64,000 bases of DNA from a virus (IMGVR_UViG_3300021255_000041:561-64560), one strand, 5' to 3'; positions 4,453 to 35,982 are shown, counted from the first letter of the stretch. Made by a program: numbers and translations. Notes: a model not told the origin generated them from the letters alone.

Positions 4453-4478
4453 TCATAAAAGGATGTGTAAAACACACG
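4453..4478 (-). promoter_or_regulatory. Phage promoter motif copy 1
   Basis: CG TGTGTTT TACA CATCCTT TTATGA. Confidence 0.7.
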
Positions 4479-4492
4479 TATAATTACATAAA

Positions 4493-4522
4493 AAAAAGAG
4501 CCTCGTTCAAGAAGCTCTTTTT
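4493..4522. terminator. Bidirectional intrinsic terminator
   Basis: AAAAAGAGC...GCTCTTTTT overlapping the stop of the 81-aa ORF. Confidence 0.65.
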
Positions 4523-4752
4523 AGCGTTTCAGGATCAACAAGCGTCGTTTTCTCGAAAAGACCTTCGCGTATAAAATCAGTAAATCCCATAAAAGTTACA
4601 TTATCCGTGTTTTTATTTACAACCCAGGTGATATTATTGTAATATTGGCCTGGGTTTGATTCTAAGCACACATAATAATTTACATCATCTTCTCGAATCC
4701 AAAAGATTTTTTCATGCAATAGCTCTTTCAAAGAACCGTATACTTTTTCCAT
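4507..4752 (-). CDS. Small protein, candidate immunity partner
   Basis: 81 aa, RBS GAAAGGAGG, directly downstream of the papain-fold ORF and followed by a terminator. Confidence 0.6.
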   Translation of the reverse strand: MEKVYGSLKELLHEKIFWIREDDVNYYVCLESNPGQYYNNITWVVNKNTDNVTFMGFTDFIREGLFEKTTLVDPETLKRAS

Positions 4753-4783
4753 TTGATCCTCCTTTCTTAAAATATAATGTTAA

Positions 4784-5731
4784 TCATGCGAAATTTACAT
4801 ATTTTTCCAAAGCATCAATATTAATTTCAGCGCCATCTAGGCGAGCAACTGTGAAAAAATCACGAGGGTTCATCATCTTCCAATATATCATAACACCGTT
4901 ATCTTTTTCACCAGCTTGGAAATCGTAAAACGATACTTTACCATCTTTAATATCCCAGTTAAAAGCATGTCCACCAGGACGTATTTTATGATCCCATTGA
5001 ATGCTGCAAACACCAGATGCATTTTGACCGAATTTATTTATCAAAAATTCAGCCGCATCTTCCGGTGATTTCCCAAATTTTACAGCACTGCCGTCTAACA
5101 CGCGCGCGCCCTTGAAACAATCTTCTATCAAACCGCCTAATAGTTGTTGATTACCGCCAGTTCCCTTCGCCGTGACATCATATCCAGCCATTCGCAGAAA
5201 GCCGGCAACTGCGCAATTCGTGCAATTGTTTTGACCTTCCAAAGTACTGCGTAATGGGTTCGCCTTGGCTAAGCTTTCGCTTAATGTTTCCTTACTAGCT
5301 AAACGTTTTAAACGCGAGGCGCTTTTACCGGCAACATCACTAAACGTTTCTTCGACAGAATCAACATTACCGACAAGTTTATGCTGTTTCATAAAAGTAT
5401 CGGTAACTATATTTTTGCCTATATTAATGTTGTTGTCAAGTATTCCAGACTGATACAGTTTATATCCGCCGTACGCAGCCAATGCCGTTCCTACGGCAGC
5501 AGTCCCAATCTTCAAAGCTCGTTTCTGATTATCCGTAAGGCTATATCTATCGGTACCGCCATCCTTTTTATTGTTTCTTTTATCTTTATCCAGGCTTTTT
5601 CGCCAGCCAGCTCGTCGTTCTGAAGCCGAATGATCGGATTCGCCCAATGGATATGGAGGGCCGTTTCTACGTCCCCACTTCTGCCCTAGAATCCCATGAT
5701 GATAAAGATAAGAAGGACTATAATTACTCAT
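4784..5731 (-). CDS. HHG-tag protein with C-terminal papain-fold (Tox-PL-like) domain
   Basis: Start MSNYSPSYLYHHGILGQKWG (RBS AGGAGG); NNC170TNC, GGH255AF, YD270FQ give a Cys-His-Asp triad. Confidence 0.75.
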   Translation of the reverse strand: MSNYSPSYLYHHGILGQKWGRRNGPPYPLGESDHSASERRAGWRKSLDKDKRNNKKDGGTDRYSLTDNQKRALKIGTAAVGTALAAYGGYKLYQSGILDNNINIGKNIVTDTFMKQHKLVGNVDSVEETFSDVAGKSASRLKRLASKETLSESLAKANPLRSTLEGQNNCTNCAVAGFLRMAGYDVTAKGTGGNQQLLGGLIEDCFKGARVLDGSAVKFGKSPEDAAEFLINKFGQNASGVCSIQWDHKIRPGGHAFNWDIKDGKVSFYDFQAGEKDNGVMIYWKMMNPRDFFTVARLDGAEINIDALEKYVNFA

Positions 5732-6080
5732 CAGTATCCTCCTGACTATCGAAGTCGGCCTGTATTTTAAGACGCCATTCAAACTCGTTGATCTGCTGCC
5801 GAATGACATCAATCACAGCGCCGCTCAAAGGCGGATCAAAAACAAGTTTAACTTTGAGAAACATGTACGATTTGACCAGCTGCAGCTGAGTGCTCTCCGG
5901 TATAAAATTTGTCCAGTTTTCGTCTTTGCCGGTTATGGCGAACCCATCTGTCGGTCCAACTCCGAGCTGGTGTAATATCATGAATACGGAGTTTATGTGC
6001 ATAATCAGATCCGCGTCGAAATGCTCATACTCCTCCGTGATGCCGAGCATCTTTTTTATAGAGGTCAATATACTTTCCAT
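5724..6080 (-). CDS. Head-tail connector/adaptor-like protein
   Basis: 118 aa MESILTSIKKMLGI...HINSVF, helical adaptor-like sequence in the packaging region. Confidence 0.55.
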   Translation of the reverse strand: MESILTSIKKMLGITEEYEHFDADLIMHINSVFMILHQLGVGPTDGFAITGKDENWTNFIPESTQLQLVKSYMFLKVKLVFDPPLSGAVIDVIRQQINEFEWRLKIQADFDSQEDTDE

Positions 6081-6109
6081 TTTGTTCTCCTAACCTCCAA
6101 GCTTGCATG

Positions 6110-6532
6110 TTAATGCTTCCACGGACAGGTATCATTCTTTGTCCGGAAAGTTGGTCCAAGCATAAGCTGGGACTCGTCACCATAGTGTATGGCATTGTGG
6201 GTATTATGAGTTGTGCTGATCAAGTATTCAGGATTCATCAGCATCTCACTTCTTGTCTCCAAATCCCTTTGGGATATCGGGTTCATATGATGGATAAGAA
6301 TCTTTCCAAATATCTGATAATCTTCAATTCCCAAATCACAGCCGTTGTCCCGCAAGATCACTTGATTTCGAATCGTTCGCCATTCAAGTGACTTATAGAA
6401 CTGCTGATTCATGTACCGATCGAATCCAAACGTCTCTCTGCCGACGGATCCGCTCAGTTTCAGATACTCAAAGCGTTCTTTGAACGTCGGAAGTGTTATG
6501 AGCTCAGAATACGTTCTAATCTTCGTACTCAT
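6110..6532 (-). CDS. HNH endonuclease (packaging-associated)
   Basis: RDNGCDLG, IHHMNPI, THNAIH motifs; adjacent to the small terminase candidate. Confidence 0.8.
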   Translation of the reverse strand: MSTKIRTYSELITLPTFKERFEYLKLSGSVGRETFGFDRYMNQQFYKSLEWRTIRNQVILRDNGCDLGIEDYQIFGKILIHHMNPISQRDLETRSEMLMNPEYLISTTHNTHNAIHYGDESQLMLGPTFRTKNDTCPWKH

Positions 6533-6863
6533 AGTATTCTTCCTCGTTGGTTTTCCCGCTGTATCGCTTCATCGCCGCTATAACCGCCATATACTGCTCT
6601 TCGGTTCTTCGTGCAGCCTCCAGTGTTTCGGTTTTAGCTCTGAGTAATTTCACTTCTTCTTCGAGTTTCTCCCGTTCTCGGCGTTCCCGCATCGATCCGA
6701 GCTTGAGATAGTGCGTGATCACCTGTGATGAAGCCGTTCCTTCAAGTAATTGTCGCTCTGCCAGGTCAACCGCGAGCGAAATCATCTTGTTTTCCTGTGC
6801 TTCAGGAGTGAGCGCCGGCCTGGTCTTACGAGAAGGGCCGACATTCTTCGTAGTTTTCTTCAT
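6516..6863 (-). CDS. Putative terminase small subunit
   Basis: 115 aa, first gene of the late operon, coiled-coil C-terminus; assignment positional. Confidence 0.5.
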   Translation of the reverse strand: MKKTTKNVGPSRKTRPALTPEAQENKMISLAVDLAERQLLEGTASSQVITHYLKLGSMRERREREKLEEEVKLLRAKTETLEAARRTEEQYMAVIAAMKRYSGKTNEEEYYEYED

Positions 6864-6910
6864 TAAGCACCCCGCTCTTAAGACTTTTCTTATAGTTTTG
6901 CTGTACTTTT

Positions 6911-7177: not shown

Positions 7178-7444
7178 TTATTGGGAATAAAACTCTTCAT
7201 CAGTCAATTTCTTCTTAACCTTTTTGTAGATATTCAAGAAGTCATATTTGATGATTTCGTCAATTGCGCGCTCAATTTCTTCATTATTCTCTTCATCTGT
7301 GAATTGACTTGAAGTTTTAGCAATTCTTGCTAAGTAGCCACAAGAGTTGTATCCTTTTTCGACATCATACAAGAACCATTCGCGAAAGTTATCGAACGGA
7401 TCAAACGGATTATCGAAAGTCGTTAAAGCTGCAACTTCATGCAT
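7178..7444 (-). CDS. Hypothetical protein downstream of RNAP
   Basis: 88 aa with RBS, LTTFDNPFDPF motif. Confidence 0.75.
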   Translation of the reverse strand: MHEVAALTTFDNPFDPFDNFREWFLYDVEKGYNSCGYLARIAKTSSQFTDEENNEEIERAIDEIIKYDFLNIYKKVKKKLTDEEFYSQ

Positions 7445-7462: not shown

Positions 7463-10234
7463 TTAACTTTCTTTGTATTTGTTTACAGTTGACACTGAAA
7501 CACCTAAAGCATCAGCAATTTCCTGATTTGTGTAACCAGAAGCTTTCATTGCCTGGAGCTTATTTATTTTAGCTGGGGTCATTGTTTTTGCCGTACGAGG
7601 TGTAGCTCTTTTTCTAAGATCATCACCGTCAACATACTTAATAATCTGACGCAATTTGTTTTCTGATATTGCACCAGACTGAATTGCTTCCCATTCACGA
7701 TCAGAAAGCTTAATCGGCTGTCTTAGTGCGCCGACTCTGATTCGAGCAGAAGTCAGTTCACGTTGAGCAATCTTCTTAAGTTCTTTCTTTTCGATAGCAG
7801 GATTGTCCTGTTTTATAGCATCAACACGGGCTTTAGTCATGATCTGGGCGGTGCGCTCTCTAGGGGCGTTTTTAAGTGCCAGGTTGAGCCGGGAGTCAAG
7901 AGAATCTGCCTCTTTCTTATAAACTTTATTAGCAGAGGGGGAGTATTCTATACGCCCGGTATTGATCATCTCTTTGCGGGCCGAGTTTGCCATAGCCTTA
8001 AGGTTATTGGCATAGTTAGCATAGGCCAGCTCCACAGGGGTACGCCGGTTGGATACAAGGGTCATAGCGTCCGATGTCTCCATCATAGCGTTACTCTTCT
8101 GAGTCCTGGTAATTACTTTGCCTTTCTTATTGACATATGTCAGATTGTCAGCTGTTTTCCAGGAAACTGAGCCGTCCTCATTAATAATGGGGCTACCCTG
8201 TCTCTTAGGTACTGACCTCTGTGACTTGGCACGGGAGATGATAGTGGCGGCACCTTCGTGATACTTACCGTCTTCCCCTATATGTCCCTGATACTTTCTC
8301 TTAAGCTCAGCAATGTGGTTCTCCTTCTCGCTGCGCTTATAGTCCAGGTTATGCTTGTATGCATCAATAACTACCATATTGTGCATTGTCGCCCAGGCAA
8401 GTTCCTTTTCGGTCGCACCAAACTGGGTCATATCGCTCAGAAGGTTCGACACAGTGCCCATCTCTTTCTGAACAGCACCCTTGTTCATTCTCTTGTAGGG
8501 AACCGAGGTGCTGCCTGGACCGTATTTGTCTTTGGCATCGAAGCCCTCTAAGTCTTTGAGAGGCGGCGTCGACTGGACTTTAACTCTGTCCGATAATGGT
8601 ATGACCATAACGGTATCACCGTCAAAGTCAGCTCCGGACAGACGATCCGCAGTAGCCTTCGTAATACCGATCGCATCTTTCGGGTTCGTACCAATAACAT
8701 CTTTGCCTTCCTGCACTTTGTTGTTAACTTTGCAGATAGGGATCTGATAAGTACCCTCATGCGGGAATCTGACAAGAGCTACTCTTTCGCCGTCTCTGTA
8801 GTTAGGCGCATAGACCTCGTTATCGTTGATTGTGGTCAAAGGAAGGATGACCTGATAACTCTGACGAGGAAGTGACGCACCCTGCAGATGGACCGCAGCA
8901 GAATCGCAGTCATCCGCAAAGGACTTAAGAAGCTCTTTCTTGACCGTCGGATTGGTCAGCGATCTGATCTCCTCAAGTTCCATCTTTTTATCCGCAATGG
9001 ACAGATTGAGCTGGTTATTAATAAGCTTCATATCCTGCTTAGCAAGGAACTGTGATGGCAGCTTATTCTTCCAGTCCCCCCAGTCTCCTTCATCGCCACG
9101 TTTATTGATCAGTGAAAGGTGCTCTTTACCGTCGTCTCCTTCATAATAGCTCTGACCGCCTACTTCTTTGATCAACGACCCAAATGGGTTCTTAGGGTCG
9201 TCTGTAATCTGCTTCAATACCGAATGGTCTTTCGGTCCAAGAGCGGGAGTTCCTTTCTTCTTGTTGGTGTTAAACATGACGTCCACGCCATCAGGAAGGT
9301 TGTCGGAATATATAGCCATGCCCTTGAGGTAATGAGTACCATCGACCAGGATGCGAACCTGTGCGTAATGACTGTCTCCGAGAGAAAGGTCTTTTACACC
9401 TCTACGGATCTCGATCACGCCATCCTTCGCTTCACCACCATCTTCGGCGTAGCGAATAGCCAGTCGCTTTGAGTCCATGCTTGCAGGATATTCAAAGGCT
9501 TTTCTGATTTCCCGTCCATTGTCGACAAGGATCTTGTCGTAGTCCTTAAGCGAATGTACGTCTTCGAAGTTGTAAATGTCTTTATGCTGCGTACCGGGAG
9601 GACATAACACTTTAAGGTTGGTCTGTCTTCCGGGATTGGTTGCCTGAGGTACGCCACCGCCATAGACCTCGTATCCTTCGGCCTTGAGCAATTCAAGAGC
9701 CTGGTCGAATTTCTCTTTGGATACATTGCACTCACGCTCGACACCAGCACCAACATCGATCATACCTTTCTTATTCACAGCTTCTCTGAGATAATCGGCA
9801 GTGACCTTTGCGCTGTCCATGCGTGCTTCTGCATTCTCATTGAGAAGCGATCTGATGGAGGATTCACTGTTATAACCCATTTCTTCTGCGATCTGGGTTC
9901 GCGTTAAGCCTTTTTCCTGAAGCTCTTTTGCTTTGGCAACTTTGGCTGATCTTTCCTCGTTTTTAGCAAGGGCATAGTAAGCTCTGAACTGAGTGGTTGA
10001 TAAATTCAAAGACTTGGCAATGGCTGTATCACCTTTGAAGGTTTCGCCAGTATCAGGATCCGTCCAGGTGAATCCTTCTTTACGCATCTTCTTGACACGA
10101 CTCACGAAATCGCCGCTATGCTGATTGGGATTTTCACCGCTGCCCAATGGATATCTGCCTGATCCACGTCCAGGTGCTCCGTCCATTTTACTGACACCGT
10201 AGTGCATTAAGATGTCTTCAGCCACTTTGTTCAT
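7463..10234 (-). CDS. Single-subunit two-barrel (double-psi) RNA polymerase with HTH domains
   Basis: GADFDGD at 8615-8629 (D536-D540), R489FPH, AQVRILVDGTHYLKG (RdRP-type QxR..KG); HTHs at N- and C-termini. Confidence 0.8.
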   Translation of the reverse strand: MNKVAEDILMHYGVSKMDGAPGRGSGRYPLGSGENPNQHSGDFVSRVKKMRKEGFTWTDPDTGETFKGDTAIAKSLNLSTTQFRAYYALAKNEERSAKVAKAKELQEKGLTRTQIAEEMGYNSESSIRSLLNENAEARMDSAKVTADYLREAVNKKGMIDVGAGVERECNVSKEKFDQALELLKAEGYEVYGGGVPQATNPGRQTNLKVLCPPGTQHKDIYNFEDVHSLKDYDKILVDNGREIRKAFEYPASMDSKRLAIRYAEDGGEAKDGVIEIRRGVKDLSLGDSHYAQVRILVDGTHYLKGMAIYSDNLPDGVDVMFNTNKKKGTPALGPKDHSVLKQITDDPKNPFGSLIKEVGGQSYYEGDDGKEHLSLINKRGDEGDWGDWKNKLPSQFLAKQDMKLINNQLNLSIADKKMELEEIRSLTNPTVKKELLKSFADDCDSAAVHLQGASLPRQSYQVILPLTTINDNEVYAPNYRDGERVALVRFPHEGTYQIPICKVNNKVQEGKDVIGTNPKDAIGITKATADRLSGADFDGDTVMVIPLSDRVKVQSTPPLKDLEGFDAKDKYGPGSTSVPYKRMNKGAVQKEMGTVSNLLSDMTQFGATEKELAWATMHNMVVIDAYKHNLDYKRSEKENHIAELKRKYQGHIGEDGKYHEGAATIISRAKSQRSVPKRQGSPIINEDGSVSWKTADNLTYVNKKGKVITRTQKSNAMMETSDAMTLVSNRRTPVELAYANYANNLKAMANSARKEMINTGRIEYSPSANKVYKKEADSLDSRLNLALKNAPRERTAQIMTKARVDAIKQDNPAIEKKELKKIAQRELTSARIRVGALRQPIKLSDREWEAIQSGAISENKLRQIIKYVDGDDLRKRATPRTAKTMTPAKINKLQAMKASGYTNQEIADALGVSVSTVNKYKES

Positions 10235-10896
10235 CGTTGCTCCCCTTTCTCGATATTACTCACAAAAGAATTGATGGCTACAATCCGATCCATGATCGGA
10301 AGAATAACTTCGAAACCCGGATTTGCGATGAGGATGTCATCGGATTGATACAAACGAAGCTCTATCTCCGTCGGCTTCGCTTTGTACTCCAAACAAAAAA
10401 GAGCAGCGTATACTTCAAGCTGCTCCATGTGTGCCGGATGGTCACCGGTCTTCAAATCATGAATTTGTAATCGATCATTCCTGTAAGAGATCGTATCGGC
10501 AGTGCCGAAAAAGAAATCAGAATAAACAAGTTTCTGTTCCGGTTTCATCTTGAAACTCACACCATCATTGATGTAGTGCTTGACCGTTTCATAAACGATG
10601 TCCGGTAAGTAGTTTAGGTGTTGTAGCAACACCAGTCCGTAAGCGAGGTTGTCAAGATGCTTATATTTAGTATAAATATAATTCTCGACAGAATCCTCTA
10701 ATTTCTTGACTCCGGAAATCCGATGCCCCAACTCAATCTGGGAAGCAGCGAATTCATGGATCTCTGTGCCGATCAACGATCGGTATTGACTTTGGAACTT
10801 GTTAATAATTTTGTCGCCATCGTATCGCAGCCATGCGCTTTGACTTGGTGGAAACAAAGCGTGGCCCTCAACATCTGAATGCTCGTTGAAGATCAT
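10231..10896 (-). CDS. PD-(D/E)xK exonuclease (Cas4/lambda-exonuclease-like)
   Basis: GTEIHE, GTADTI, IHDLKTG, QLEVYA motifs. Confidence 0.75.
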   Translation of the reverse strand: MIFNEHSDVEGHALFPPSQSAWLRYDGDKIINKFQSQYRSLIGTEIHEFAASQIELGHRISGVKKLEDSVENYIYTKYKHLDNLAYGLVLLQHLNYLPDIVYETVKHYINDGVSFKMKPEQKLVYSDFFFGTADTISYRNDRLQIHDLKTGDHPAHMEQLEVYAALFCLEYKAKPTEIELRLYQSDDILIANPGFEVILPIMDRIVAINSFVSNIEKGEQR

Positions 10897-11173
10897 TAAG
10901 TACTTCCTCCTTGTTCTCAGGACATATGAATCTTGAGAAAGACATCTTGTCCATGAGTCCTACATAGTAACTTTGATTTGGTTGCTTCTTAGCCTTGGTG
11001 GTTTTCTTGCATTCTAACGTTGCCCATTTGTTTTTGTACAAAACTAAGAGATCGGGTATCCCCTGCAGGTAACCCGAATCGAGTTTCATTACAAGGCATC
11101 CTTTAAAAAGCTTTTCAAGTTCTTTTATCAGCTTAGCCTGAAAGTCTCGTTCGAGTTTCGAATTATCAGCCAT
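10868..11173 (-). CDS. VRR-NUC domain nuclease
   Basis: ERDFQAKLI, GIPDLLVL, LECK, QPNQ motifs; start MADNSK after RBS GAGGAGG. Confidence 0.8.
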   Translation of the reverse strand: MADNSKLERDFQAKLIKELEKLFKGCLVMKLDSGYLQGIPDLLVLYKNKWATLECKKTTKAKKQPNQSYYVGLMDKMSFSRFICPENKEEVLNDLQRAFRC

Positions 11174-11229
11174 GGAATATCCTCCTCTAAACAAAAGAGG
11201 GGAAGTCGCGTTTATATTCTATCTTCTCC

Positions 11230-11255
11230 TCATAAAAGGGCGTGTTATTTTTGCG
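11230..11255 (-). promoter_or_regulatory. Phage promoter motif copy 2 (heads the nuclease-RNAP operon), followed by hairpin and U tract
   Basis: CG CAAAAAT AACA CGCCCTT TTATGA; hairpin 11197-11231. Confidence 0.7.
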
Positions 11256-11711: not shown

Positions 11712-11737
11712 TCATAAAAGGGTGTGTAAATTTGAGT
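11712..11737 (-). promoter_or_regulatory. Phage promoter motif copy 3 (lacks CG)
   Basis: AC TCAAATT TACA CACCCTT TTATGA. Confidence 0.55.
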
Positions 11738-11741: not shown

Positions 11742-12332
11742 CTACTCAATGGTCACGGAAGTGTCTATTAGTTTCTTTTCGACCCTTGCCATAACATCGA
11801 CATAATACTTGTAGTCTTCGGCACTCAGATTATCCTCATTATATGAATCAATCTTCGTCGCAAAGTCTGCGTAATCAGACATTAAAGACGTATACTTTGC
11901 TAACATGGTGGGATTGGTCGCGTCATACGACTGCATAAAGTCACAATAGTCATTCATGAACGATTCGTAAGAATCCATATATTCTTTGAACTCCGGAGTC
12001 ACACCGCCAGCGTCGGCGGCAGGAGCTTCAGTCTGCTTGTTTGTCTGCGCCTGAGTAGAAGAGGCCGTCTCCGTTGTCTTTGCAGTTGTCTCCTTCTCAG
12101 TTGTCTTTGTCGGTATCACGGACGCGACTTCCGACGGAAGCTTGTCAGCAACCTTGTTGACCATACCATTTTGATATGCGTAATACCCGGCGCCAACAAT
12201 TATGACAAGCAACAGAAGATTTCTAAAAGCATGACTCTTCTTTTGCTTTGCTCCACACTGAGGACATTTCTTTGCGCTCTTCGCTATCTCCGATCCACAG
12301 ACCCTGCAGCGAACCAATTTATCACGTGACAT
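11742..12332 (-). CDS. Zinc-ribbon single-pass membrane protein (DUF6591-like C-terminus); lysogenic-conversion candidate
   Basis: CRVCG..CPQCG, TM helix LLLLVIIVGAGYY, T/E-rich linker, FKEYMDSYESFMNDYCDFM domain; own sigmaA promoter. Confidence 0.75.
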   Translation of the reverse strand: MSRDKLVRCRVCGSEIAKSAKKCPQCGAKQKKSHAFRNLLLLVIIVGAGYYAYQNGMVNKVADKLPSEVASVIPTKTTEKETTAKTTETASSTQAQTNKQTEAPAADAGGVTPEFKEYMDSYESFMNDYCDFMQSYDATNPTMLAKYTSLMSDYADFATKIDSYNEDNLSAEDYKYYVDVMARVEKKLIDTSVTIE

Positions 12333-17767: not shown

Positions 17768-17793
17768 CCATAAAAGAGACTGTTAATATAGCG
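17768..17793 (-). promoter_or_regulatory. Phage promoter motif copy 4
   Basis: CG CTATATT AACA GTCTCTT TTATGG. Confidence 0.7.
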
Positions 17794-18086
17794 AACAAAA
17801 ACAAAAGAGCCCTCTTGCGAGAGCTCAAATAATGATACAGATATACTTCAGCGACCAATGCGTCGCCAAAACTTCGCGTTCCATCGCCTTTCTGTGAAAT
17901 ACTGGATCATGTCCAGTAAAGATCCGTAGGCGATTTCATACGGCATGAAATTATTAAGCCATTTACGCATTTCCTTTCCTCCCTTCTGAAATATAAATTG
18001 TTCCACAAAAGCCTCTGTAATTTTCGCGTCCAAACGCATATTTATACATTCATTTGTCATACACTGCGTTTTTATACACTTTTTAT

Positions 18087-18751: not shown

Positions 18752-18777
18752 CCATAAAAGAGACTGTATATTTGACG
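18752..18777 (-). promoter_or_regulatory. Phage promoter motif copy 5
   Basis: CG TCAAATA TACA GTCTCTT TTATGG. Confidence 0.7.
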
Positions 18778-19117: not shown

Positions 19118-19143
19118 CCATAACAGCCCATGCAATACCTGCG
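19118..19143 (-). promoter_or_regulatory. Phage promoter motif copy 6
   Basis: CG CAGGTAT TGCA TGGGCTG TTATGG. Confidence 0.65.
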
Positions 19144-21539: not shown

Positions 21540-22841
21540 TTAGTCTGGATCAAATGGTAATACTTCGTTTTCGGTGACCGGGACATTCATAAACTCAGGC
21601 ATGGCCGGTGGTATCGGTCCGCCGTTTACAAAGTTGTCAAAGTCGCCGTATTTCGAGATGGTGGCAACGGCCTCATCACAAAGCCTGTCATAATAGCTTC
21701 GATCGATGTCGTCCTCTTTTCCGAGTTCTTTCACCATCTCTGACTCAAGCCACCGATAGCCTTTTGTACCTGTGACAGCATAATATTTACCATCCTGAAC
21801 CCGATACAATACTCCTCCTCCTTTTCCGGGTTTGATGGGGCAGAACTGTCCGACTCTGCCTACGAAAATATAGTTGTGGCCCTCGGCTATCTTGGGCTCC
21901 AGTTCGCTTTTGATCTTGTCGAAGGTGGTATCCGACATAAGACCCTTCTTAAATTTGTCAGCCGCCCTTTCAAGATCTTTCTCGTATTCGCTGACATCCG
22001 GCAGATCCTCATTCATGTCAATAAAAATAGACCCCTTGACAACCGATTTGGTTTCACAGAGGTCTTTAAATTCTATTGGTTCCTTGCTGAATAAGGTTTT
22101 GAATACGTATGGCACCTGGAACTGAGTTGCTTTCGGTATCCATAAGCCAGGCGTATCCGGATCGTCTTCCGCGCATTTGGCGATAAATGTTGACGCATTA
22201 ACCAGGCATATTCGTTCGAAAACATTCTCAATTTCGAAATTGTAACCGTATTTTTTTCCGAACTCTTTTACAAAAGCTATGATGCTGTCGTCAGCGTTTA
22301 CGATTTTTATCGAGTCCGTCTTGATGCTTATAGGCATGTATTCGCGTTTGATAACTTCATCTCGAAGAGTAACCATGAATAAGGCCCCTCTAAGGGCGAC
22401 GATATTGTTTTTATTTCTGGCGTCGTGAAACGGATTATCAAACGATGCGGATGTAAGGCCATACACACTATTGACGCTGATCTTGAGAGCTCCTGAAAGT
22501 CCTTTAGTCATTTCGGGATCGTTTAAATATTTCGCGACTTTGCCGTTCAGCATGGTTTTCGCGGTTTCCAGATCGCCATGCTTAATGCATGTTCTCAGAT
22601 CAACCAACTCCTTGTATCTCGCGGTCTTATCGCCAAAACAGTTCATAGCGATAGTGCTTGAGGGATGCTGTCCACTTATGTCAAGAACAACGGTTCTCCC
22701 ATACATTCCAGGCTTATAATACACGTATCCGCCAAACCCAACGTCTTCCCCTCGGAATATATTGTGATATTTACCGTCCTCAAGCCGTTTGAATTCGTAT
22801 CCGGGAAAAGAGTTAATAATTCCAGCCGTTTGAGTCGTCAT
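21540..22841 (-). CDS. Family B DNA polymerase, palm/fingers/thumb part
   Basis: Motif A LDISGQHPS, motif B KISVNSVYG, motif C KTDS; start MTTQTAG after RBS GGAGAGGAG. Confidence 0.8.
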   Translation of the reverse strand: MTTQTAGIINSFPGYEFKRLEDGKYHNIFRGEDVGFGGYVYYKPGMYGRTVVLDISGQHPSSTIAMNCFGDKTARYKELVDLRTCIKHGDLETAKTMLNGKVAKYLNDPEMTKGLSGALKISVNSVYGLTSASFDNPFHDARNKNNIVALRGALFMVTLRDEVIKREYMPISIKTDSIKIVNADDSIIAFVKEFGKKYGYNFEIENVFERICLVNASTFIAKCAEDDPDTPGLWIPKATQFQVPYVFKTLFSKEPIEFKDLCETKSVVKGSIFIDMNEDLPDVSEYEKDLERAADKFKKGLMSDTTFDKIKSELEPKIAEGHNYIFVGRVGQFCPIKPGKGGGVLYRVQDGKYYAVTGTKGYRWLESEMVKELGKEDDIDRSYYDRLCDEAVATISKYGDFDNFVNGGPIPPAMPEFMNVPVTENEVLPFDPD

Positions 22842-23002
22842 ATAACAATCTCTCCTCTCCATCTTTTTGGTTTGTCTCCGATATACCAATAACAACCATA
22901 CCCAGTCGGATAATGTTTTTTACATCTAAACGTTCTGACTCGTCCTTTGTTGCTAACTTGATATCCGGAAAAACCTTTTATGTCTTTCCATATTTCTCTC
23001 AT
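22838..23002 (-). pseudogene. Truncated NUMOD4 homing-endonuclease relic (54 aa)
   Basis: MREIWKDIKGFSGYQVSNKGRVRT is a NUMOD4 signature; no HNH domain follows; stop overlaps the PolB start. Confidence 0.7.
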
Positions 23003-23012
23003 AGTCGCCCCA

Positions 23013-25760
23013 CTAATATTGCTCGCCTGTGGCGAGGTTTGTATAAATCAATTTTGGATGTTTTTCATTTCCAAATATAATTTTGGTTGTGAGAGTGTTG
23101 GTGGTATCGTTCGGAGTTCCGCCAGCCAATTCGGCCAAAATCTTTCTTGCCACAAAGTCGGCTTTCCTTTCATTAAACACCGCTTCGGTTGCCAGCACGT
23201 CGTTATCACAGTACTCAGCTACCTTCGGCCATAATTCCTCAGGCACGGGCTGATCCCAAGGTAAACCAAGCTCCTGATGATGGATACCCAGTTCAATTTC
23301 CCATTTCTTGAGAGACTGCTTCTTTGAACAGAAGTCGTATACATCCGTATAGCTGATGTTATATGCCTCGCCAAAGAACGGCTTATCCTTATCAGAGTCA
23401 CTGTTAATGATTTTACTGGACAGTTCGTAAAGCTGATAATTGCTGTAGCCGATCAGCCTTGCGTACAGAATATGATTGTCGTACTTCCTGCAGTTAAAAC
23501 CCACAAGGTTAAAACGAATCAGCTCCTCAATCTCCGCCGGACCCGGGTTGATCATCCGAACGACAGGCTTCCCCTCCCCGGCAATTTTCCAGTTGACAAG
23601 GAACAGGTTCGGAAATACCTCAACGTCATAAAAGACAAGGTCGGCCGTTGCATCGTCAACGTTCTCGGCTTCCTTCTTCGATTTGAAGTGCATTTTCTTC
23701 ATGGCGTCGAGGCAATAATCAGCATGGTGTGTACTGCCGGCTGCAAATGAGAATATATCACCCTGCATGTCAGTCACATCATACTCAAGATCACTCTTGT
23801 ACGCGTCATCAAGAATTTTCACAATAAAATCGATGGAAGGTTTCGTACCAGGATGGACTTCCTTATTCAGGTTTTTCAAAAGGATCCGCCGAAGTCCCGC
23901 TTCGCTTTTTATTCTGTCACCATTTACCACAATATCTCCTTTCTTCTTTTTTGGCAGACCGGAGCTTATGGTTGCAATCGGCATCCGGTTGCATTTTGAC
24001 AGCCTTCTCCGAAGAGAAGCTTTTCCTGAAAAGACCTTAATCTCAATGCCTGGCGCATACAGACGTTCAAGCATCTCCACATCGCCTGTGTAAATATAAT
24101 GCAGATGAATGCCTGCTCCGCCCTTGCTGATCTCGGCATAAGTCGGTGGCCACTTATTCGCCTCAGCCAGATTCAGTTCAAGGGACTTGTTACCGTTCTC
24201 GTCCTTCAGATCAAAGTCAATAACCACATGGTTGTCAGGCAGCAATACGTAATGCACAAGCGATGTATCAATGTCAGACAACTTTGTCCGTACATTCTCC
24301 CATTTCCAACGAGGCTTATCCTCTTCGTCGGCAAGCTGTGCAATACAATCCGCGTATTCCTTGTCGAAGATAGAGTCAGTCGCCTCGAAAATAATGCTGT
24401 ACGGTTTTTCTTCTTCCTCCTGCTCCGGCTCATCGGCTGTCCGATTCTCGAACTTATCCGCTCTGAACCCGATATACCGGTTTCTGACCCGCGTACCATC
24501 CTCCAAAACATCTCGATCCTTAAACTCCTGGAAGTAGTTCTTCAGTTCTTCCTTGAACGGGCGTAAAGAATATGGATAGGGCACTTTTGCATCATCGCAA
24601 TACGTCTTATACATCTCCCATGCGGCCTTCAAAGTAGTCGCGTCTTCTTTCTTGAAGAAATAATAGGAGTCGATGATAAAATTGTAGAAGTCGTTGGAGG
24701 CACCCATCATGTTGACGGGGATATAACTGTCATACCGATCAGGTTTTGCTTTGTATACATCCAGACAATGCTTTGCAATAGCACCCAACTCAAAGTCAAT
24801 ATTCTTCATAATCCGGTGGTATTCCTTCGCATTGAGTTTTTCGCCGGTCGGTGACACGTCAATAAGTCGTCTGATCAGACCAGACTTTGCATCTGTAATC
24901 TTCACCGGCTTATTCGTACCCATGAAAAGGAAACACTTAAAACGGTTTGAATATAATGACTTGTGTTTTTCGTTGATCGTCATTTCTTCGTGAGAGACGA
25001 GGCTGTTTAAACGGGTGTTATCCTCAATTCTCGACAGGTCACCATCGTGCTGGATCGCCACAAGCGGATTCATTTTAAATGGCTCCAACGCAAACGCATC
25101 ATGCGCCGACCCAATACTCTTCGCATCGAAGACGGTGTAATATCCTTCGAACAGCTTCTGGATAATATTAAGAACCGTTGACTTACCGGTTCCCATCGCT
25201 CCATAAAAGACCATAAACTTCTGGATATACTTCGAGTCCCCGGAGACGATCGCCCCAATAGCCCATTCAATTTTTTGTCTTTCTTCGGGAGAATATAAAA
25301 CAGACATGAGACGATCGTAGCTGGAGATGTCGCCATCTTCCAAAGGATAAGGAAGGCGTTTGCTGGCATAATCCTCTTTGCGAGGTTTGGTGTTTGAGAA
25401 TATAAGATTTTCGTCGAGCATATGAAACGAGTCGCGAAGCTGTCTCTGACAATACTTGTGCCACACATCTATCATGCCGGTTCCGGAGTCCCACATATGC
25501 AGGACCCGGATGTTATCGGCTTTTCGCTCAAGTTTTTCTCTGTTTTCCTCGACGTATTTGTCGAGCTCATGGTCTATCAGCTGAAGGGCGGCCCCCTCGT
25601 CAGTAGACCACAATCCGAGTTCCTCAATCCAGACAGCATAAAAGTCACCGCCTCGTATCATGAGGTCTGTGCTTTTCCTGACTGTCGGGATGATGAATTT
25701 CGGATAGACCTCTATCACGTCTTTTGACTTTCGTGTAGAAATCATCAAAAAATCCATCAT
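23013..25760 (-). CDS. SF3 helicase - primase-like - PolB 3'-5' exonuclease fusion
   Basis: FYGAMGTGKST, GTNKP; DFDLKD and SKGGAGIHLHY (AEP-like); YDVEVF, GFNCRKYD, YCDNDV (ExoI-III). Confidence 0.8.
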   Translation of the reverse strand: MMDFLMISTRKSKDVIEVYPKFIIPTVRKSTDLMIRGGDFYAVWIEELGLWSTDEGAALQLIDHELDKYVEENREKLERKADNIRVLHMWDSGTGMIDVWHKYCQRQLRDSFHMLDENLIFSNTKPRKEDYASKRLPYPLEDGDISSYDRLMSVLYSPEERQKIEWAIGAIVSGDSKYIQKFMVFYGAMGTGKSTVLNIIQKLFEGYYTVFDAKSIGSAHDAFALEPFKMNPLVAIQHDGDLSRIEDNTRLNSLVSHEEMTINEKHKSLYSNRFKCFLFMGTNKPVKITDAKSGLIRRLIDVSPTGEKLNAKEYHRIMKNIDFELGAIAKHCLDVYKAKPDRYDSYIPVNMMGASNDFYNFIIDSYYFFKKEDATTLKAAWEMYKTYCDDAKVPYPYSLRPFKEELKNYFQEFKDRDVLEDGTRVRNRYIGFRADKFENRTADEPEQEEEEKPYSIIFEATDSIFDKEYADCIAQLADEEDKPRWKWENVRTKLSDIDTSLVHYVLLPDNHVVIDFDLKDENGNKSLELNLAEANKWPPTYAEISKGGAGIHLHYIYTGDVEMLERLYAPGIEIKVFSGKASLRRRLSKCNRMPIATISSGLPKKKKGDIVVNGDRIKSEAGLRRILLKNLNKEVHPGTKPSIDFIVKILDDAYKSDLEYDVTDMQGDIFSFAAGSTHHADYCLDAMKKMHFKSKKEAENVDDATADLVFYDVEVFPNLFLVNWKIAGEGKPVVRMINPGPAEIEELIRFNLVGFNCRKYDNHILYARLIGYSNYQLYELSSKIINSDSDKDKPFFGEAYNISYTDVYDFCSKKQSLKKWEIELGIHHQELGLPWDQPVPEELWPKVAEYCDNDVLATEAVFNERKADFVARKILAELAGGTPNDTTNTLTTKIIFGNEKHPKLIYTNLATGEQY

Positions 25761-30356: not shown

Positions 30357-30382
30357 TCATAAAACTGCTTGTTTTTTTCGCG
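30357..30382 (-). promoter_or_regulatory. Phage promoter motif copy 7
   Basis: CG CGAAAAA AACA AGCAGTT TTATGA. Confidence 0.7.
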
Positions 30383-30384: not shown

Positions 30385-31167
30385 TCAATGCAAGGATCTG
30401 AAATCCGGCCTTGGGGCTATCCGATAGTCGACGACCAGGCACGGTACGCCGTCCTCATCAAGCTGAGCACTGAACTCCATGTCGATCAGTCCGTCCTCGA
30501 TATACCACCCGATGTCGTCACCATCTTTTACCGGGGAAAGCCCTATCTCGTAGTAGTATTCGTTCAAAGAAATAAACATCTCGCTGAGAAGGCGTTTATT
30601 CAATTCATTCTCAACCCGTCTCAGCTTTTCAATATCGGACTTAAACCTTCTGGCTCTGAAAGTATCGAAGCATCTGGTTTCGCCTCCACCGGTAATGATT
30701 ATTTCTTTATTGACCAGAGGTTCCCGCTCAAGATGTTCTTTTGCGATAGCATCTCTCACATCCCGCTCTTTTTTCTCGCCGACGGTCTCGATCACCTTTT
30801 CCTGGTATTCTTTGAGCGCCGTCTCGGTCATGGTGTAAGCGGTCGCGAGTGCTGTATTGCGTCTTTTGTTGATGGACTGTCCACCAATGATGCAAGCTGA
30901 TGACGCCACACCAGATAATGCCGTCGGGACATAGCACGTCCAAGTAGCTTTGACTGTATCTGCCGTAGACAATTTATCGGTTTTCAGTTCCTTCTTCTTT
31001 TTCTCGATCCTCTCCATCGCCTTCGGTGTAGCTCTGACTGCGAGCACAACGGTTAACAGCATCCCGGCAAGACCAAGACCCGTCAGAATCTCCGGACTGT
31101 TCTTCTTATAGCCATTAACCAATGATTTACTGGCCTCTGTGGCACATTTCAAAAAGCTCATACTCAT
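30385..31167 (-). CDS. DUF6353-like protein (paralog 2)
   Basis: KNSPEILTGLG, YVPTA, ALATAY, ISLNEYYYEIG..IGW. Confidence 0.7.
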   Translation of the reverse strand: MSMSFLKCATEASKSLVNGYKKNSPEILTGLGLAGMLLTVVLAVRATPKAMERIEKKKKELKTDKLSTADTVKATWTCYVPTALSGVASSACIIGGQSINKRRNTALATAYTMTETALKEYQEKVIETVGEKKERDVRDAIAKEHLEREPLVNKEIIITGGGETRCFDTFRARRFKSDIEKLRRVENELNKRLLSEMFISLNEYYYEIGLSPVKDGDDIGWYIEDGLIDMEFSAQLDEDGVPCLVVDYRIAPRPDFRSLH

Positions 31168-31709: not shown

Positions 31710-32339
31710 TCATAACACAAGGTGAAATTTTTGCGAATGAAAACTGAAACTGTAAATATGATTGCTGAGCACGTCGGATGGATCGAGAGTCTTGTTCACT
31801 TCCTCGACTATGTCTCTCAGAAACGCTGGATTCTCAATGTCCTCCGCCGGCACAAACATCAGCTCATGAATGCTTGAGGGAATCACGTAATACTCTCCTG
31901 CCGGTAGACCCGAGATATACTCCGGATAAAGCATCAATACGCCTCCGTTATACATATCTTTTGAACCGACTACGTAAATCGGCGTAGACGAATCCATGTC
32001 AAACGGCAAGAATACGTTGTTTACACTGTAGAGTATCTCATCCAGCAAACGCACACAAACATCCATGTTTCGAATGGTGTTCGTGTATGCCATATCATAG
32101 AGCAAATCGAAGCTGACTCCCAGGAACTCCAGAGCATCGTTCTTCACTGTCGCCACGCACTTTGACCCATCAGGAAAATCGCCAAAGTTAATCTTGATGA
32201 TTACGGCGATATCCGGGAATGGTAGCAGGCGATGCGGTACCTCTTTGAGCATCTCAACGTTGTTGTCATAGTTTACGAGTTGCAAAAACGTTCTACCGGG
32301 AATATCCTCCTTTCGAATTTTGGTTAATCCTTCACTCAT
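31710..32339 (-). CDS. DUF5688-like protein; putative sRNA target
   Basis: YYVIPSSIHEL, VEEVN, VLSNHIY signature; leader complementary to the 6942-6973 hairpin loop. Confidence 0.75.
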   Translation of the reverse strand: MSEGLTKIRKEDIPGRTFLQLVNYDNNVEMLKEVPHRLLPFPDIAVIIKINFGDFPDGSKCVATVKNDALEFLGVSFDLLYDMAYTNTIRNMDVCVRLLDEILYSVNNVFLPFDMDSSTPIYVVGSKDMYNGGVLMLYPEYISGLPAGEYYVIPSSIHELMFVPAEDIENPAFLRDIVEEVNKTLDPSDVLSNHIYSFSFHSQKFHLVL

Positions 32340-33237: not shown

Positions 33238-33263
33238 CCATAATAAGCTTTGTAAATTTTGCG
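33238..33263 (-). promoter_or_regulatory. Phage promoter motif copy 8, followed by hairpin and U tract
   Basis: CG CAAAATT TACA AAGCTTA TTATGG; hairpin 33218-33238. Confidence 0.7.
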
Positions 33264-33488: not shown

Positions 33489-33514
33489 TCATACAAGGAG
33501 CTGTATTTCCTGCG
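33489..33514 (-). promoter_or_regulatory. Phage promoter motif copy 9
   Basis: CG CAGGAAA TACA GCTCCTT GTATGA, immediately followed by RBS AAGGAGG. Confidence 0.7.
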
Positions 33515-33779: not shown

Positions 33780-33805
33780 TCATAAAGAGCCATGTATTTC
33801 CTGCG
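33780..33805 (-). promoter_or_regulatory. Phage promoter motif copy 10
   Basis: CG CAGGAAA TACA TGGCTCT TTATGA. Confidence 0.7.
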
Positions 33806-33831
33806 GGCAAAAATAAAAGCCCTTGCAGGGC

Positions 33832-34053: not shown

Positions 34054-34084
34054 GATTTTCTCCTTTCTGAAACAGGTTTATTTC

Positions 34085-34110
34085 TCATAGGAGCCATTGT
34101 GAACTCCGCG
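34085..34110 (-). promoter_or_regulatory. Phage promoter motif copy 11
   Basis: CG CGGAGTT CACA ATGGCTC CTATGA. Confidence 0.6.
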
Positions 34111-34238
34111 AAAAAGACAAGAGGCCCTGTTTCCAGAGCCCGCAAGATATGTTTTTGGATGTGAAGCAGATATGGTAATGGCGGGCGCAACTCCGCCGGA
34201 TGTGAAATACGCCTGCTACCAGGTCAACCTCCTTTCCA
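34111..34238 (-). ncRNA. Cassette with promoter and terminator but no clear ORF (candidate small RNA)
   Basis: After AAAGGAGG there is no ATG/GTG start; GGCGG/CCGCC hairpin, TTCACATCC x2, terminator at 34111-34142. Confidence 0.4.
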
Positions 34239-34261
34239 TAACATGCCTTGCAAATTTTGCG
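34236..34261 (-). promoter_or_regulatory. Phage promoter motif copy 12
   Basis: CG CAAAATT TGCA AGGCATG TTATGG. Confidence 0.7.
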
Positions 34262-34300
34262 GACAAAAAGAAAAGGGCCCGTAAACCGAGCCCAGATCTC

Positions 34301-34369: not shown

Positions 34370-34482
34370 TCCGTATCACCTTCTTTCCGATTCACGAGTT
34401 TCTGCACCGGCTCAACGATGCAAACAACCCAGCAAAATGTCCAGAACGAAATCTTCAAAACTTCAATTAAACGCTTTTTCAT
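34366..34482 (-). CDS. 38-aa membrane peptide (not in ORF track)
   Basis: MKKRLIEVLKISFWTFCWVVCIVEPVQKLVNRKEGDTE; RBS AAGGAG. Confidence 0.55.
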   Translation of the reverse strand: MKKRLIEVLKISFWTFCWVVCIVEPVQKLVNRKEGDTE

Positions 34483-34512
34483 AGTAACTCCTTTCTGTAC
34501 TAAATATAGTCT

Positions 34513-34538
34513 CCATAAAGGAGTCTGTATTTTTTGCG
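34513..34538 (-). promoter_or_regulatory. Phage promoter motif copy 13
   Basis: CG CAAAAAA TACA GACTCCT TTATGG. Confidence 0.7.
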
Positions 34539-34556
34539 AAAAAACAGGAGCCCTTG

Positions 34557-34853
34557 TTAGGACTCCAACCGAATTTCACAGTTATCCAAATCGGTATCCG
34601 GAAATGCGGCGTAACCATTATTCGCATAGTTGTATTCTTCCGTAAGTTTGGTATATTTTCCTTCAAATACTTTGTAGCGTTCTAACTCCTCACAAAGATC
34701 TTCGTATCGTCCTTCGGACTCCATATAACGTTCCTTCCAGACAAACGCTCTCTCTTGCCAGAAGTCAATTTCGCTATCATCATGCTTGATGACAAAAATC
34801 ATAACCAATACTCCTGCAATCAGTAACATAAGCAAATCAAGTGGTCCTGCCAT
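34557..34853 (-). CDS. Cassette gene, membrane-anchored coiled coil
   Basis: Start MAGPLDLL after RBS AAGGAGG. Confidence 0.6.
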   Translation of the reverse strand: MAGPLDLLMLLIAGVLVMIFVIKHDDSEIDFWQERAFVWKERYMESEGRYEDLCEELERYKVFEGKYTKLTEEYNYANNGYAAFPDTDLDNCEIRLES

Positions 34854-34885
34854 TTTCTTTCCTCCTTTGAAATAGGATAATAGTT

Positions 34886-34911
34886 TCATAAAGGGACGTG
34901 TGTTTATTGCG
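34886..34911 (-). promoter_or_regulatory. Phage promoter motif copy 14
   Basis: CG CAATAAA CACA CGTCCCT TTATGA. Confidence 0.7.
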
Positions 34912-34971
34912 GACAAAAAATAAAAGCCCATGCGTTTTGCACAGGCTTTAACTTTGTTTGGCAGTTACAAA

Positions 34972-35400
34972 TTACTTTCTCTTACAGATTTTGAATGACT
35001 TAGACAAGCCATCCACTTTCTGGGCCGCTCGGGAGCTAAATGTCCCAGTTTCTTCGAACCGTAAGTAACGCTTGTGCCAGGTCCAGGTTGCTAAGTATTC
35101 CAGCAGGAACATTCCACCGCTCAACCCGATCTGGAACCAACGATTCCGTTTTTCGTCTTTTGCTTCCTTCTCTTTGAGTTCCTCTTCCTGCTTCTGATGG
35201 GCTTTGTCCATCTCTCTACGGAAGCACTTCTCATCGAAGTCGCAATCAACCTTAACCTCGTCAATTCCGAGTCGGTAGAGCTTGGTAATGTTCTCTACTG
35301 CGGCTGTCTCCTCCTCGGATCCAGGCAACGAGTCTCTTAAGTTCTGAAACTGAGACATAATAGCCTCGTTCAACCCTTCGGTTATTCTCTCGTCCATCAT
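34972..35400 (-). CDS. Cassette gene (142 aa)
   Basis: RBS GGAGG; FEETGTFSS near the C-terminus. Confidence 0.7.
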   Translation of the reverse strand: MMDERITEGLNEAIMSQFQNLRDSLPGSEEETAAVENITKLYRLGIDEVKVDCDFDEKCFRREMDKAHQKQEEELKEKEAKDEKRNRWFQIGLSGGMFLLEYLATWTWHKRYLRFEETGTFSSRAAQKVDGLSKSFKICKRK

Positions 35401-35435
35401 TTTTCAACCTCCAAAATAGTAAGTTATTTATAGTG

Positions 35436-35461
35436 TCATAACAGGACTTGTTATTTCTGTG
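35436..35461 (-). promoter_or_regulatory. Phage promoter motif copy 15
   Basis: CA CAGAAAT AACA AGTCCTG TTATGA (overlaps the upstream stop codon). Confidence 0.6.
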
Positions 35462-35666
35462 GGTTGTCCAGGATTTGGACAGTCAGGGTCACAATGTCTC
35501 CCTCTTTGAGGGACTCTGCACTGACGTGCTTAAGAGACATATATGTGTAATACCCATCCTCGTCATGGGCGATCAGCATGTCTCCGTCGGTTTGAGCGGC
35601 CTGTGTCGCTTTGAGAAAAACGGTCGTTGCCGCAATGGTGATTAAAACTAATGCGAAATAAGTCAT
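35451..35666 (-). CDS. Small membrane-anchored protein
   Basis: 71 aa, N-terminal TM, RBS AAGGAGG. Confidence 0.65.
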   Translation of the reverse strand: MTYFALVLITIAATTVFLKATQAAQTDGDMLIAHDEDGYYTYMSLKHVSAESLKEGDIVTLTVQILDNPQK

Positions 35667-35715
35667 GGTTTCCTCCTTTGCTCAAAAAGAAAAAGCCCTT
35701 GCGGGCTTAATCTTG

Positions 35716-35922
35716 TTAGATGGCTAATCTGCCATAGTTTTTATTGTATGGATATATTTTTCCATTCGTGACTTCTCTCTCGGGTTTACAGAACGGGCAT
35801 TCGCCGTCCTTATACTTTGCGTGTGCATTTAAGCAGTTGCAAAGCACTTTGTCGGGTAAATCCTTTATACTGTACTTTCCGAAACAAGGTCTGCTGTCAT
35901 TACAAGTTGGTACGTATCCCAT
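35716..35922 (-). CDS. Cassette gene, Cys-rich (68 aa)
   Basis: C..S.PCFG...CNCL...CPFCKP; RBS AAGGAGG. Confidence 0.65.
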   Translation of the reverse strand: MGYVPTCNDSRPCFGKYSIKDLPDKVLCNCLNAHAKYKDGECPFCKPEREVTNGKIYPYNKNYGRLAI

Positions 35923-35956
35923 ATTTTCCTCCTTTATACATAATTAGCAATCAGTT

Positions 35957-35982
35957 TCATAATATGAGATGTTAATTTTGCG
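35957..35982 (-). promoter_or_regulatory. Phage promoter motif copy 16
   Basis: CG CAAAATT AACA TCTCATA TTATGA. Confidence 0.7.

Follow-up and report, generated by a model that had tools for sequence, protein, structure and literature searches.

The best-studied precedent for promoters that are read by a phage's own single-chain two-barrel RNA polymerase is Thermus phage P23-45, in which the virion polymerase gp96 and the non-virion polymerase gp64, both of them two-barrel enzymes, use motifs of their own located within -30 to +1 of mapped transcription starts (bioRxiv 10.1101/2022.12.01.518664; PMC10770324). Those starts were mapped by ONT-cappable-seq together with ChIP-seq, and the motifs are absent from relatives without the enzyme (PMC10770324). 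As such, P23-45 is an earlier case in which an enzyme-associated motif was used to deduce the promoters of a two-barrel phage polymerase. Here we analysed a stretch of 64,000 nucleotides from a virus (IMGVR_UViG_3300021255_000041:561-64560; hereafter the window, which covers 64,000 of the 64,560 bases of one contig and has a GC content of 45%) that carries many copies of a 26-bp motif, and we consider this motif to be, quite probably, the promoter of the phage's own predicted single-chain two-barrel RNA polymerase, a member of PHROG 4291. As in P23-45, such a polymerase is accompanied by a motif that tracks the enzyme, and in structure the polymerase of the window comes close to P23-45 gp64 and P74-26 gp62, which belong to its best matches. 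However, the motifs of P23-45 are AT-rich and GC-rich and unrelated in sequence to the one described here, its enzymes lack fused helix-turn-helix (HTH) modules, and its starts have been mapped, whereas those of the window are deduced from sequence.

Promoters of the T7 type (T7, T3 and SP6) are contiguous elements of ~23-26 bp that are present in many copies on one strand, and in T7 itself TATA is followed by GGGAGA, so that a T/A-rich melting segment precedes a purine-rich start. The motif of the window is likewise contiguous, proceeds from TTTAT to GARRRR and has many copies on one strand, but the resemblance is functional only, as the predicted enzyme has a two-barrel fold and not the right-hand, Pol-I-like fold of the T7-type polymerases. 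Similar to the virion RNA polymerase of coliphage N4, the polymerase of the window would perhaps enter the cell together with the DNA and recognise early promoters that are specific to the phage, although N4 promoters are DNA hairpins and the fold of the N4 enzyme is T7-like. Promoters specific to a phage polymerase are already known as a kind; what is new here is the class, that of the 1706-type polymerases.

No relative of cellular RNA polymerase is smaller than the single-chain two-barrel polymerases of the YonO-like kind. YonO is encoded by SPbeta, a temperate Firmicutes phage, and the paper describing it states that its promoter is unknown and explicitly leaves open how such polymerases find promoters (Forrest et al. 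2017, PMC5467207). Unlike the polymerase of the window, YonO has no HTH ends and serves one long late operon instead of early cassettes. Ruprich-Robert and Thuriaux treat '1706' as a separate group among YonO-like proteins, and Koert et al. propose an 'HTH-RdRP-HTH' protein as signature polymerase for a supercluster that spans phages of Actinobacteria and Firmicutes; the predicted polymerase of the window is of this type in both schemes. Our literature search for a described promoter of this 1706-type family returned a single motif, that of Gordonia phage Vardy (cluster DJ), a 50-bp motif with TATAAT present in five intergenic copies mid-genome (Henson et al. 2022, PMC9671010). Judged by this description, which matches our observations in the cluster-DJ phage Duffington, the Vardy motif is almost certainly the Actinobacteria form of the element described here. 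The published account concerns one phage, reads TATAAT as a sigma-70 -10 box and makes no link to a polymerase gene or to Firmicutes phages (PMC9671010).

Copies of the motif in the window and in related phages

Sixteen minus-strand copies of a fixed-spacing non-sigma70 promoter, CG-N7-HRCA-N7-NTATGR, had been reported in a first-pass annotation of the window, and every one of them was recovered where it had been placed. Written as CG-N7-HRCA-N8-TATGR, which has the same geometry, the strict pattern matches 14 times, on the minus strand only, with 0.34 matches expected and never more than 2 in shuffled sequences; the two copies already known to lack the CG (11712 and 35436) align with the others in register. 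When the 16 copies were turned into a weight matrix, they themselves scored 24-36 bits, and the matrix added two new copies as well as one borderline site (Table 1), which brings the total in the window to 18-19 copies. Scores on the plus strand do not exceed 10.4 bits, and on the minus strand they do not exceed 11.1 bits in 1-4400 and 36000-64000, the capsid and tail module with ~32 kb of structural genes, where a scan by eye had likewise found no copy. Every copy lies on the coding strand, and the 26-bp consensus reads C1-G2-C3-R-A-A-A-A-W-W-A11-C12-A13-N4-C18-T-N-T-T-A-T-G25-R.

The T-run of a terminator-like hairpin is found within about 12 nt before 12 of the copies, in keeping with the observation of the first-pass annotation that they usually stand just after a terminator, and hairpins of this type are enriched on the minus strand (21 against 9.1 expected; 20 against 12.8 expected). 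Taking the G of TATG as reference, 11 of the 19 copies have a Shine-Dalgarno sequence (SD) at +21 to +26 with the start codon following at +32 to +38. The earliest SD positions, +3 or +4, are seen in four copies. The annotation had also remarked that a ribosome-binding site or a hairpin starts right at this G in some copies; behind the 11230 copy, a hairpin begins at about +1. Judged from its sequence, the early region is a chain of cassettes, each consisting of a predicted promoter, an SD, an open reading frame (ORF) and a terminator.

Four named phages with homologous polymerases carry the motif as well. Faecalibacterium phage FP_oengus, whose polymerase is 47% identical, has 15 copies of ACGCGAAAAAnnCA-N7-CTTTATGR, and Lactococcus phage 1706 (polymerase 35% identical) has 12 copies of the variant CACAwGTTTTACA-N5-CTATAGTAG, while Gordonia phage Duffington and Arthrobacter phage CapnMurica, both with polymerases 45% identical, carry 8 and 10 copies, respectively, of TCGCA-N5-TTACA-N5-TATAATGAGA. 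The spacing of CGC/CAC, CA, the T/A hexamer and the G is unchanged across the four, and all copies are confined to the coding strand and to the early/middle region. The phages thus have natural variants with TTTATG, TATAGTAG and TATAATG.

On a larger scale, the matrix of the window was applied to 75 IMG/VR loci with a polymerase homologue at 47-64% identity, where all 168 sites that it found were on the strand of the polymerase gene, with 0 on the opposite strand and likewise 0 in shuffled sequences. A site lies 0.5-1.6 kb before the polymerase gene in 70 of the 75 loci, as does the 11230 copy in the window. In the reverse direction, the 26-bp pattern in IUPAC code retrieved at least 118 viral stretches, 77 of which were new; 75 of these 77 encode homologues of proteins of the window phage, 46 of the new loci include the polymerase, and in the remaining two records the polymerase is encoded elsewhere in the record. 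That the motif belongs to the phage polymerase is thus supported, at the level of sequence, by the co-occurrence of both across Firmicutes and Actinobacteria phages.

Host genomes were covered by running a relaxed pattern against five Lachnospiraceae genomes that carry such prophages (18.9 Mb). Prophages of this group account for 35 of the 38 matches, all of them co-oriented with the polymerase gene; the other 3 are not in any phage context, compared with 1 match for the reversed-pattern control. A host sigma regulon was rejected, as only 3 of the 38 matches lie outside prophages. The proposal of the first-pass annotation that these are promoters of the phage RNA polymerase is strengthened by both kinds of comparison, given that the motif tracks the PHROG-4291 gene across two phyla, recurs in the four named phages and the 75 IMG/VR loci, and is, those contextless matches aside, absent from host chromosomes outside such prophages.

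The closest GenBank record, MT835495.1 (our loci L001 and L002), shares the structural and polymerase modules with the window, has only two motif copies and shows no homologues of the early/replication genes. Either its early module is of another kind or the record, marked 'UNVERIFIED', is a chimeric scaffold, and with two copies and no early/replication module it is uninformative for the present question.

The predicted transcription start and the sigma-A reading

In six relatives, a tRNA gene that scores above the Rfam gathering score over the full model begins 1-4 nt after G25 of the motif (Table 1), and the transcripts of these six would have next to no 5' leader. Combined with the positions of the SDs, the tRNA starts place the transcription start at or before motif position 26-29, and tRNA genes at such a short distance from G25 indicate that the T-rich hexamer is not a sigma-70 -10 box. 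A sigma-70 start, predicted 6-9 nt past the hexamer at about position 31-33, would cut into the six tRNAs and four SDs. In addition, positions 25-31 are almost all purine in 147 distinct related sites (position 31 lying outside the scoring matrix), and this stretch resembles an initial transcribed sequence. We infer from these sequence features that +1 falls on G25 or a neighbouring base. The suggestion of the first-pass annotation that +1 should be about at the G of TATG, and that TATG is not a -10 box, thus agrees with tRNAs that begin 1-4 nt past this G and with an SD 2 nt past it in the window.

Regarding the tRNAs themselves, ARAGORN labels four of the six 'tRNA-???' with abnormal anticodon loops, and the tRNA of FP_oengus (L003) has 6 nt where Rfam expects 9; the six may be non-standard or decoy tRNAs. 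Several loci (L073:9064, L075:9080, L080:8861, L089:9073, L090:8884 and L001:1391) have a further tRNA gene, for tRNA-Met, inserted behind the promoter of the polymerase operon and ahead of the VRR-NUC gene. At 36-95 nt downstream of the promoter, these tRNA-Met genes are too far away to bound the start.

Given the published interpretation of the Vardy motif, a host sigma-A promoter has to be considered, in which hexamer 19-24 would be the -10 box and the upstream part an UP-like or activator site. This reading draws on the hexamers TATAAT in the Gordonia and Arthrobacter phages, TATAGT in 1706 and TATTAT in many prophages, and it is the one adopted by Henson et al. 2022 (PMC9671010). We regard it as very unlikely. 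The hexamer of the window is mostly TTTTAT or CTTTAT and thus lacks the A at position 2; at motif position 20 most copies of the window have T, and A is found in only 34% of the 147 related sites, while both -10 features (A at position 2 and T at 6) are present in the Actinobacteria variants. Neither a TTGACA-like element 16-18 bp upstream of the hexamer nor a TGn was found, the family logo having CGC at the expected end of a -35 element and C/T-C/T-C in the place of TGn, and scans of the window with the sigma-70 consensus remained at chance level. The tRNA genes and SDs that would be truncated by initiation 6-9 nt beyond the hexamer, as well as the confinement of the motif in host chromosomes to these prophages, with the 3 exceptions given above, speak against sigma-A in the same way, as does the fact that one 26-bp architecture is kept in two phyla with different sigma-A preferences.

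The tRNA genes bear on another alternative, in which the motif is not a promoter but the operator of a regulator, the fallback of the first-pass annotation, or an element acting at the RNA level in the 5' untranslated region. Its location upstream of genes would be compatible with either function, but we find this scarcely credible. With tRNA genes starting 1-4 nt after it, the motif is not part of those RNAs; its strand exclusivity is total, as the ratio of 168 to 0 in the IMG/VR loci illustrates; and it stands directly past terminators, where a new start is needed. Moreover, comparison of the matrix with its own reverse complement gave a correlation of -0.02, i.e. no dyad symmetry, and the 26-mers have a mean minimum free energy of -1.55 kcal/mol against -1.67 in shuffles. 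A hairpin promoter and a palindromic operator were both rejected for lack of hairpin potential and of dyad symmetry.

With respect to YonO, alignment of a 79-sequence profile of the polymerase family by hhalign gave a probability of 0.2%, and membership in the narrow YonO family was rejected, the relation being one at the level of fold and motif only. The full motif is absent from SPbeta, where its 5' two-thirds are missing. The 3' core, ATTTATGARGG, is present twice in 35 kb of SPbeta, both times in the yonN-yonK gap and on the strand of the late operon (L287:15602 and L287:15445, minus strand; ~60,601 and ~60,444 in the SPBc2 record), and CAGTT lies ~20 nt upstream of each copy. The second copy (ATTTATGAGGG, SPBc2 ~60,438) falls in the middle of the P(YonO) primer-extension amplicon set by the primers of Forrest et al., and the reverse primer has its 5' end ~108 nt away. 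These copies offer a lead to a candidate core of the YonO promoter, with the YonO start placed by the published primers alone.

The predicted polymerase and the proposed mechanism

The ORF at 7463-10234, which would encode the reader of the motif, matches phrog_4291 ("phage 1706 orf75") with 1173.8 bits, residues 2-922 aligning to 5-906 of 909, and has homologues with 35-49% identity over at least 98% of the length in 250 GenBank phage records. Beyond these records, a word search returned over 8,000 clusters at 90% identity, while at 50% identity the family amounts to 2,156 clusters. Pfam recognises only HTH in the 923-aa ORF, with C-terminal matches of the HTH and sigma-70 region-4-like type, and a comparison with PF00940 (T7-type polymerase) gave no match. 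Across 79 homologues, R489-x-P491, D536-F-D-G-D540, Q292, R294, K304-G305 and K627 are invariant, and the conservation of the DxDGD loop, the RxP and the basic residues of the second barrel provides the catalytic signature of two-barrel polymerases. An AlphaFold2 model of the protein (predicted local distance difference test, pLDDT, 88.1; predicted template modelling score 0.80) returned QDE-1 (E 1.8e-8), P74-26 gp62, P23-45 gp64 and RDR2 at a Foldseek probability of 1.00, and P23-45 gp96 and crAss gp66 as weaker matches. The global template modelling score is only ~0.3, meaning that the shared part is the core only, and as phmmer found no match among PDB sequences, these relatives came from the fold search alone. 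Sequence and model together thus mark the protein as a predicted two-barrel RNA polymerase of the 1706 type. Its residues 25-33 (10138-10165, minus strand) form an invariant S-G-R-Y-P-x-G-S-G within a disordered N-terminal segment with pLDDT below 50; this sequence is present in no other protein of the window and may be a packaging or interaction tag.

We propose that the fused HTH modules would let the polymerase bind double-stranded DNA, that it would melt the T/A-rich hexamer at 19-24, and that it would initiate at G25 or an adjacent base, the first transcribed stretch being purine-only. The promoter would then be a contiguous -24 to +1 element in the manner of T7-type promoters, and not a bipartite -35/-10 promoter. 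Its 18-19 copies would drive the early-gene cassettes beside the integrase, several units of the replication module and, in this phage, the head of the packaging/structural module, and since the operon of the polymerase itself would also be motif-driven, this arrangement would amount to positive feedback. The first round of transcription after infection would be carried out by polymerase brought along in the virion; the orthologue in phage 1706 carries the database label 'structural protein', which hints at delivery with the DNA.

A far more general version of this mechanism would hold that the element is a complete, factor-independent promoter, read in thousands of Firmicutes and Actinobacteria phages and prophages by a virion-delivered polymerase with its own sigma-4-like HTH ('sigma fused to core'), and that the start core TTTAT-G/A-RG also occurs in the mapped late promoter region of SPbeta YonO. 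We put this forward only tentatively and consider it rather doubtful. If true, it would mean that otherwise unalignable YonO-like polymerases have an initiator element in common.

The set of genes common to all motif-bearing phages compared consists of two DUF6353 paralogues, DNA polymerase, helicase, ssDNA-binding protein, VRR-NUC, exonuclease, RNA polymerase, a 197-aa ORF and an 88-aa ORF. It is conceivable that a DUF6353 paralogue or the product of the 197-aa or 88-aa ORF redirects the host RNA polymerase, or serves as an obligatory factor, as these ORFs are kept in every one of these phages and have no assigned function, and as Forrest et al. leave open whether YonO needs factors (PMC5467207). 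We hold this to be unlikely: among the common core genes no sigma or other DNA-binding domain was found except in the RNA polymerase, which has HTH at both ends with sigma-70 region-4-like matches, and a factor encoded by a motif-driven gene could not start the cascade. The 88-aa ORF, for which no Pfam family was found, was detected by tblastn in all five phages compared, and its product is a possible cofactor.

Several points weigh against the motif being the promoter of the phage polymerase. Packaging of the enzyme into virions is hinted at by one database label, and the actual specificity factor, or a second one, could be a DUF6353 paralogue or the product of the 197-aa or the 88-aa ORF. 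In most relatives the late region is devoid of copies, hence late transcription is not obviously explained by the polymerase; a matrix of the 3' half gave few, coding-looking matches downstream of the polymerase gene in the relatives, and their late genes may be transcribed by read-through from the polymerase operon or from another signal. Furthermore, the hexamer is TATAAT in the Actinobacteria phages and TATTAT in many Lachnospiraceae prophages, and some of the copies could be used by host sigma-A as well, in line with the assumption of Henson et al.

Given a 26-bp promoter and a predicted +1, how such a polymerase finds its promoters can be tested directly, using a single recombinant protein on a short template, and because the promoter is kept with informative variants across two phyla, specificity swaps could be designed from natural variants. 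The 1706-type family is very large, with prophages in common gut Lachnospiraceae. Recognition of the motif as the promoter of a phage polymerase would re-read a motif published as a sigma-70 promoter, could offer a compact orthogonal transcription system for Gram-positive hosts, and might improve the annotation of proteins labelled 'HTH DNA-binding protein' or 'RNA-dependent RNA polymerase'.

Genome layout and coordinates of features

A 107-bp terminal overlap of the contig indicates a circular assembly. All long ORFs of the window lie on the minus strand without exception, and their order runs from a tyrosine integrase (36790-38061) through very small genes to a replication module (primase-polymerase, helicase and ssDNA-binding protein), the nuclease-polymerase operon, an HNH endonuclease and the terminase. 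The large terminase gene (915-2666) is followed by the capsid and tail genes, which are reached across the contig junction. The phage is a temperate gut siphophage, and its relatives are prophages in Lachnospiraceae and other Clostridia; a megablast search of the early region against phage records gave no match.

Table 1. Motif copies, genes of the polymerase operon and motif-proximal tRNA genes. Positions refer to the window or, where a locus number precedes them, to a related locus; offsets are counted from the G of TATG.
Feature	Position	Strand	Score and context
Motif copy	35957-35982	-	32.0 bits, strict; after terminator 36018-35990; before 68-aa ORF 35716-35922
Motif copy	35436-35461	-	27.5 bits, no CG (CACA...); overlaps last codons of upstream ORF; 142-aa ORF, ATG at +38
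Motif copy	34886-34911	-	35.1 bits, strict; after terminator 34949-34923
Motif copy	34513-34538	-	35.0 bits, strict; after terminator 34566-34547
Motif copy	34236-34261	-	36.1 bits, strict; after terminator 34293-34275
Motif copy	34085-34110	-	24.3 bits, strict; after terminator 34141-34122
Motif copy	33780-33805	-	31.6 bits, strict; after terminator 33833-33817
Motif copy	33489-33514	-	32.9 bits, strict; after terminator 33552-33524; SD from +3
Motif copy	33238-33263	-	34.7 bits, strict; after terminator 33299-33272; before 212-aa ORF
Motif copy, new	31710-31735	-	25.0 bits, TCAC for ACA; overlaps 3' end of ORF 31710-32339; SD at +4
Motif copy	30357-30382	-	29.3 bits, strict; directly past stop codon of DUF6353 gene 30385-31167
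Motif copy	19118-19143	-	25.3 bits, strict; directly past stop codon of helicase gene 19144-20376
Motif copy	18752-18777	-	34.2 bits, strict; after terminator 18815-18790
Motif copy, new	18003-18028	-	28.9 bits, TGTG for TATG; ATG at +35
Motif copy	17768-17793	-	33.4 bits, strict; after terminator 17826-17807; SD at +4
Motif copy	11712-11737	-	26.2 bits, no CG (ACTC...); directly after ORF 11742-12332
Motif copy	11230-11255	-	35.3 bits, strict; before VRR-NUC / exonuclease / RNA polymerase operon
Weak candidate	4765-4790	-	19.3 bits, TAAG for TATG; near shuffle level (best shuffle 18.3)
Motif copy	4453-4478	-	28.4 bits, strict; after terminator 4522-4493; head of packaging/structural module
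VRR-NUC endonuclease	10868-11194	-	same operon as polymerase
PD-(D/E)XK exonuclease	10231-10896	-	same operon as polymerase
Single-chain two-barrel RNA polymerase, predicted	7463-10234	-	923 aa; HTH modules at N- and C-termini
88-aa ORF	7178-7444	-	directly past polymerase gene
tRNA gene	L173:7865-7934	-	1 nt after G25
tRNA gene (FP_oengus)	L003:2936-3005		2 nt after G25
tRNA gene	L196:2840-2910		3 nt after G25
tRNA gene	L288:10893-10961		4 nt after G25
tRNA gene	L095:6733-6803		4 nt after G25
tRNA gene	L186:12045-12121	-	4 nt after G25

The 4453 copy is the last before ~30 kb without the motif, and its place is not conserved in the relatives; standing behind a terminator, it is a lineage-specific re-start. 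The 34236 copy heads a unit of ~115 nt that has no ORF and ends at terminator 34141-34122, no ORF with an SD being found before +173, and the cassette at 34111-34261 (minus strand) would, by its sequence, yield a small non-coding RNA. The ORF starting at 35664 (35450-35664, minus strand) has a terminator at 35693-35708 before its cassette and no motif copy in front of it.

The region behind the 11230 copy (11189-11255, minus strand) contains a purine-rich hairpin with a T-run, and the same is seen in relatives (L001:605, L009:9073 and L011:9082); it could act as an attenuator or as a 5' stabiliser of a self-transcribed polymerase gene. Finally, the primase-polymerase homologue of the window (21540-25760, minus strand) is split into two ORFs of 915 aa and 451 aa that are separated by a gap of 117 nt, and both parts correspond to one ORF of ~1,300 aa in FP_oengus, phage 1706, Duffington and CapnMurica.

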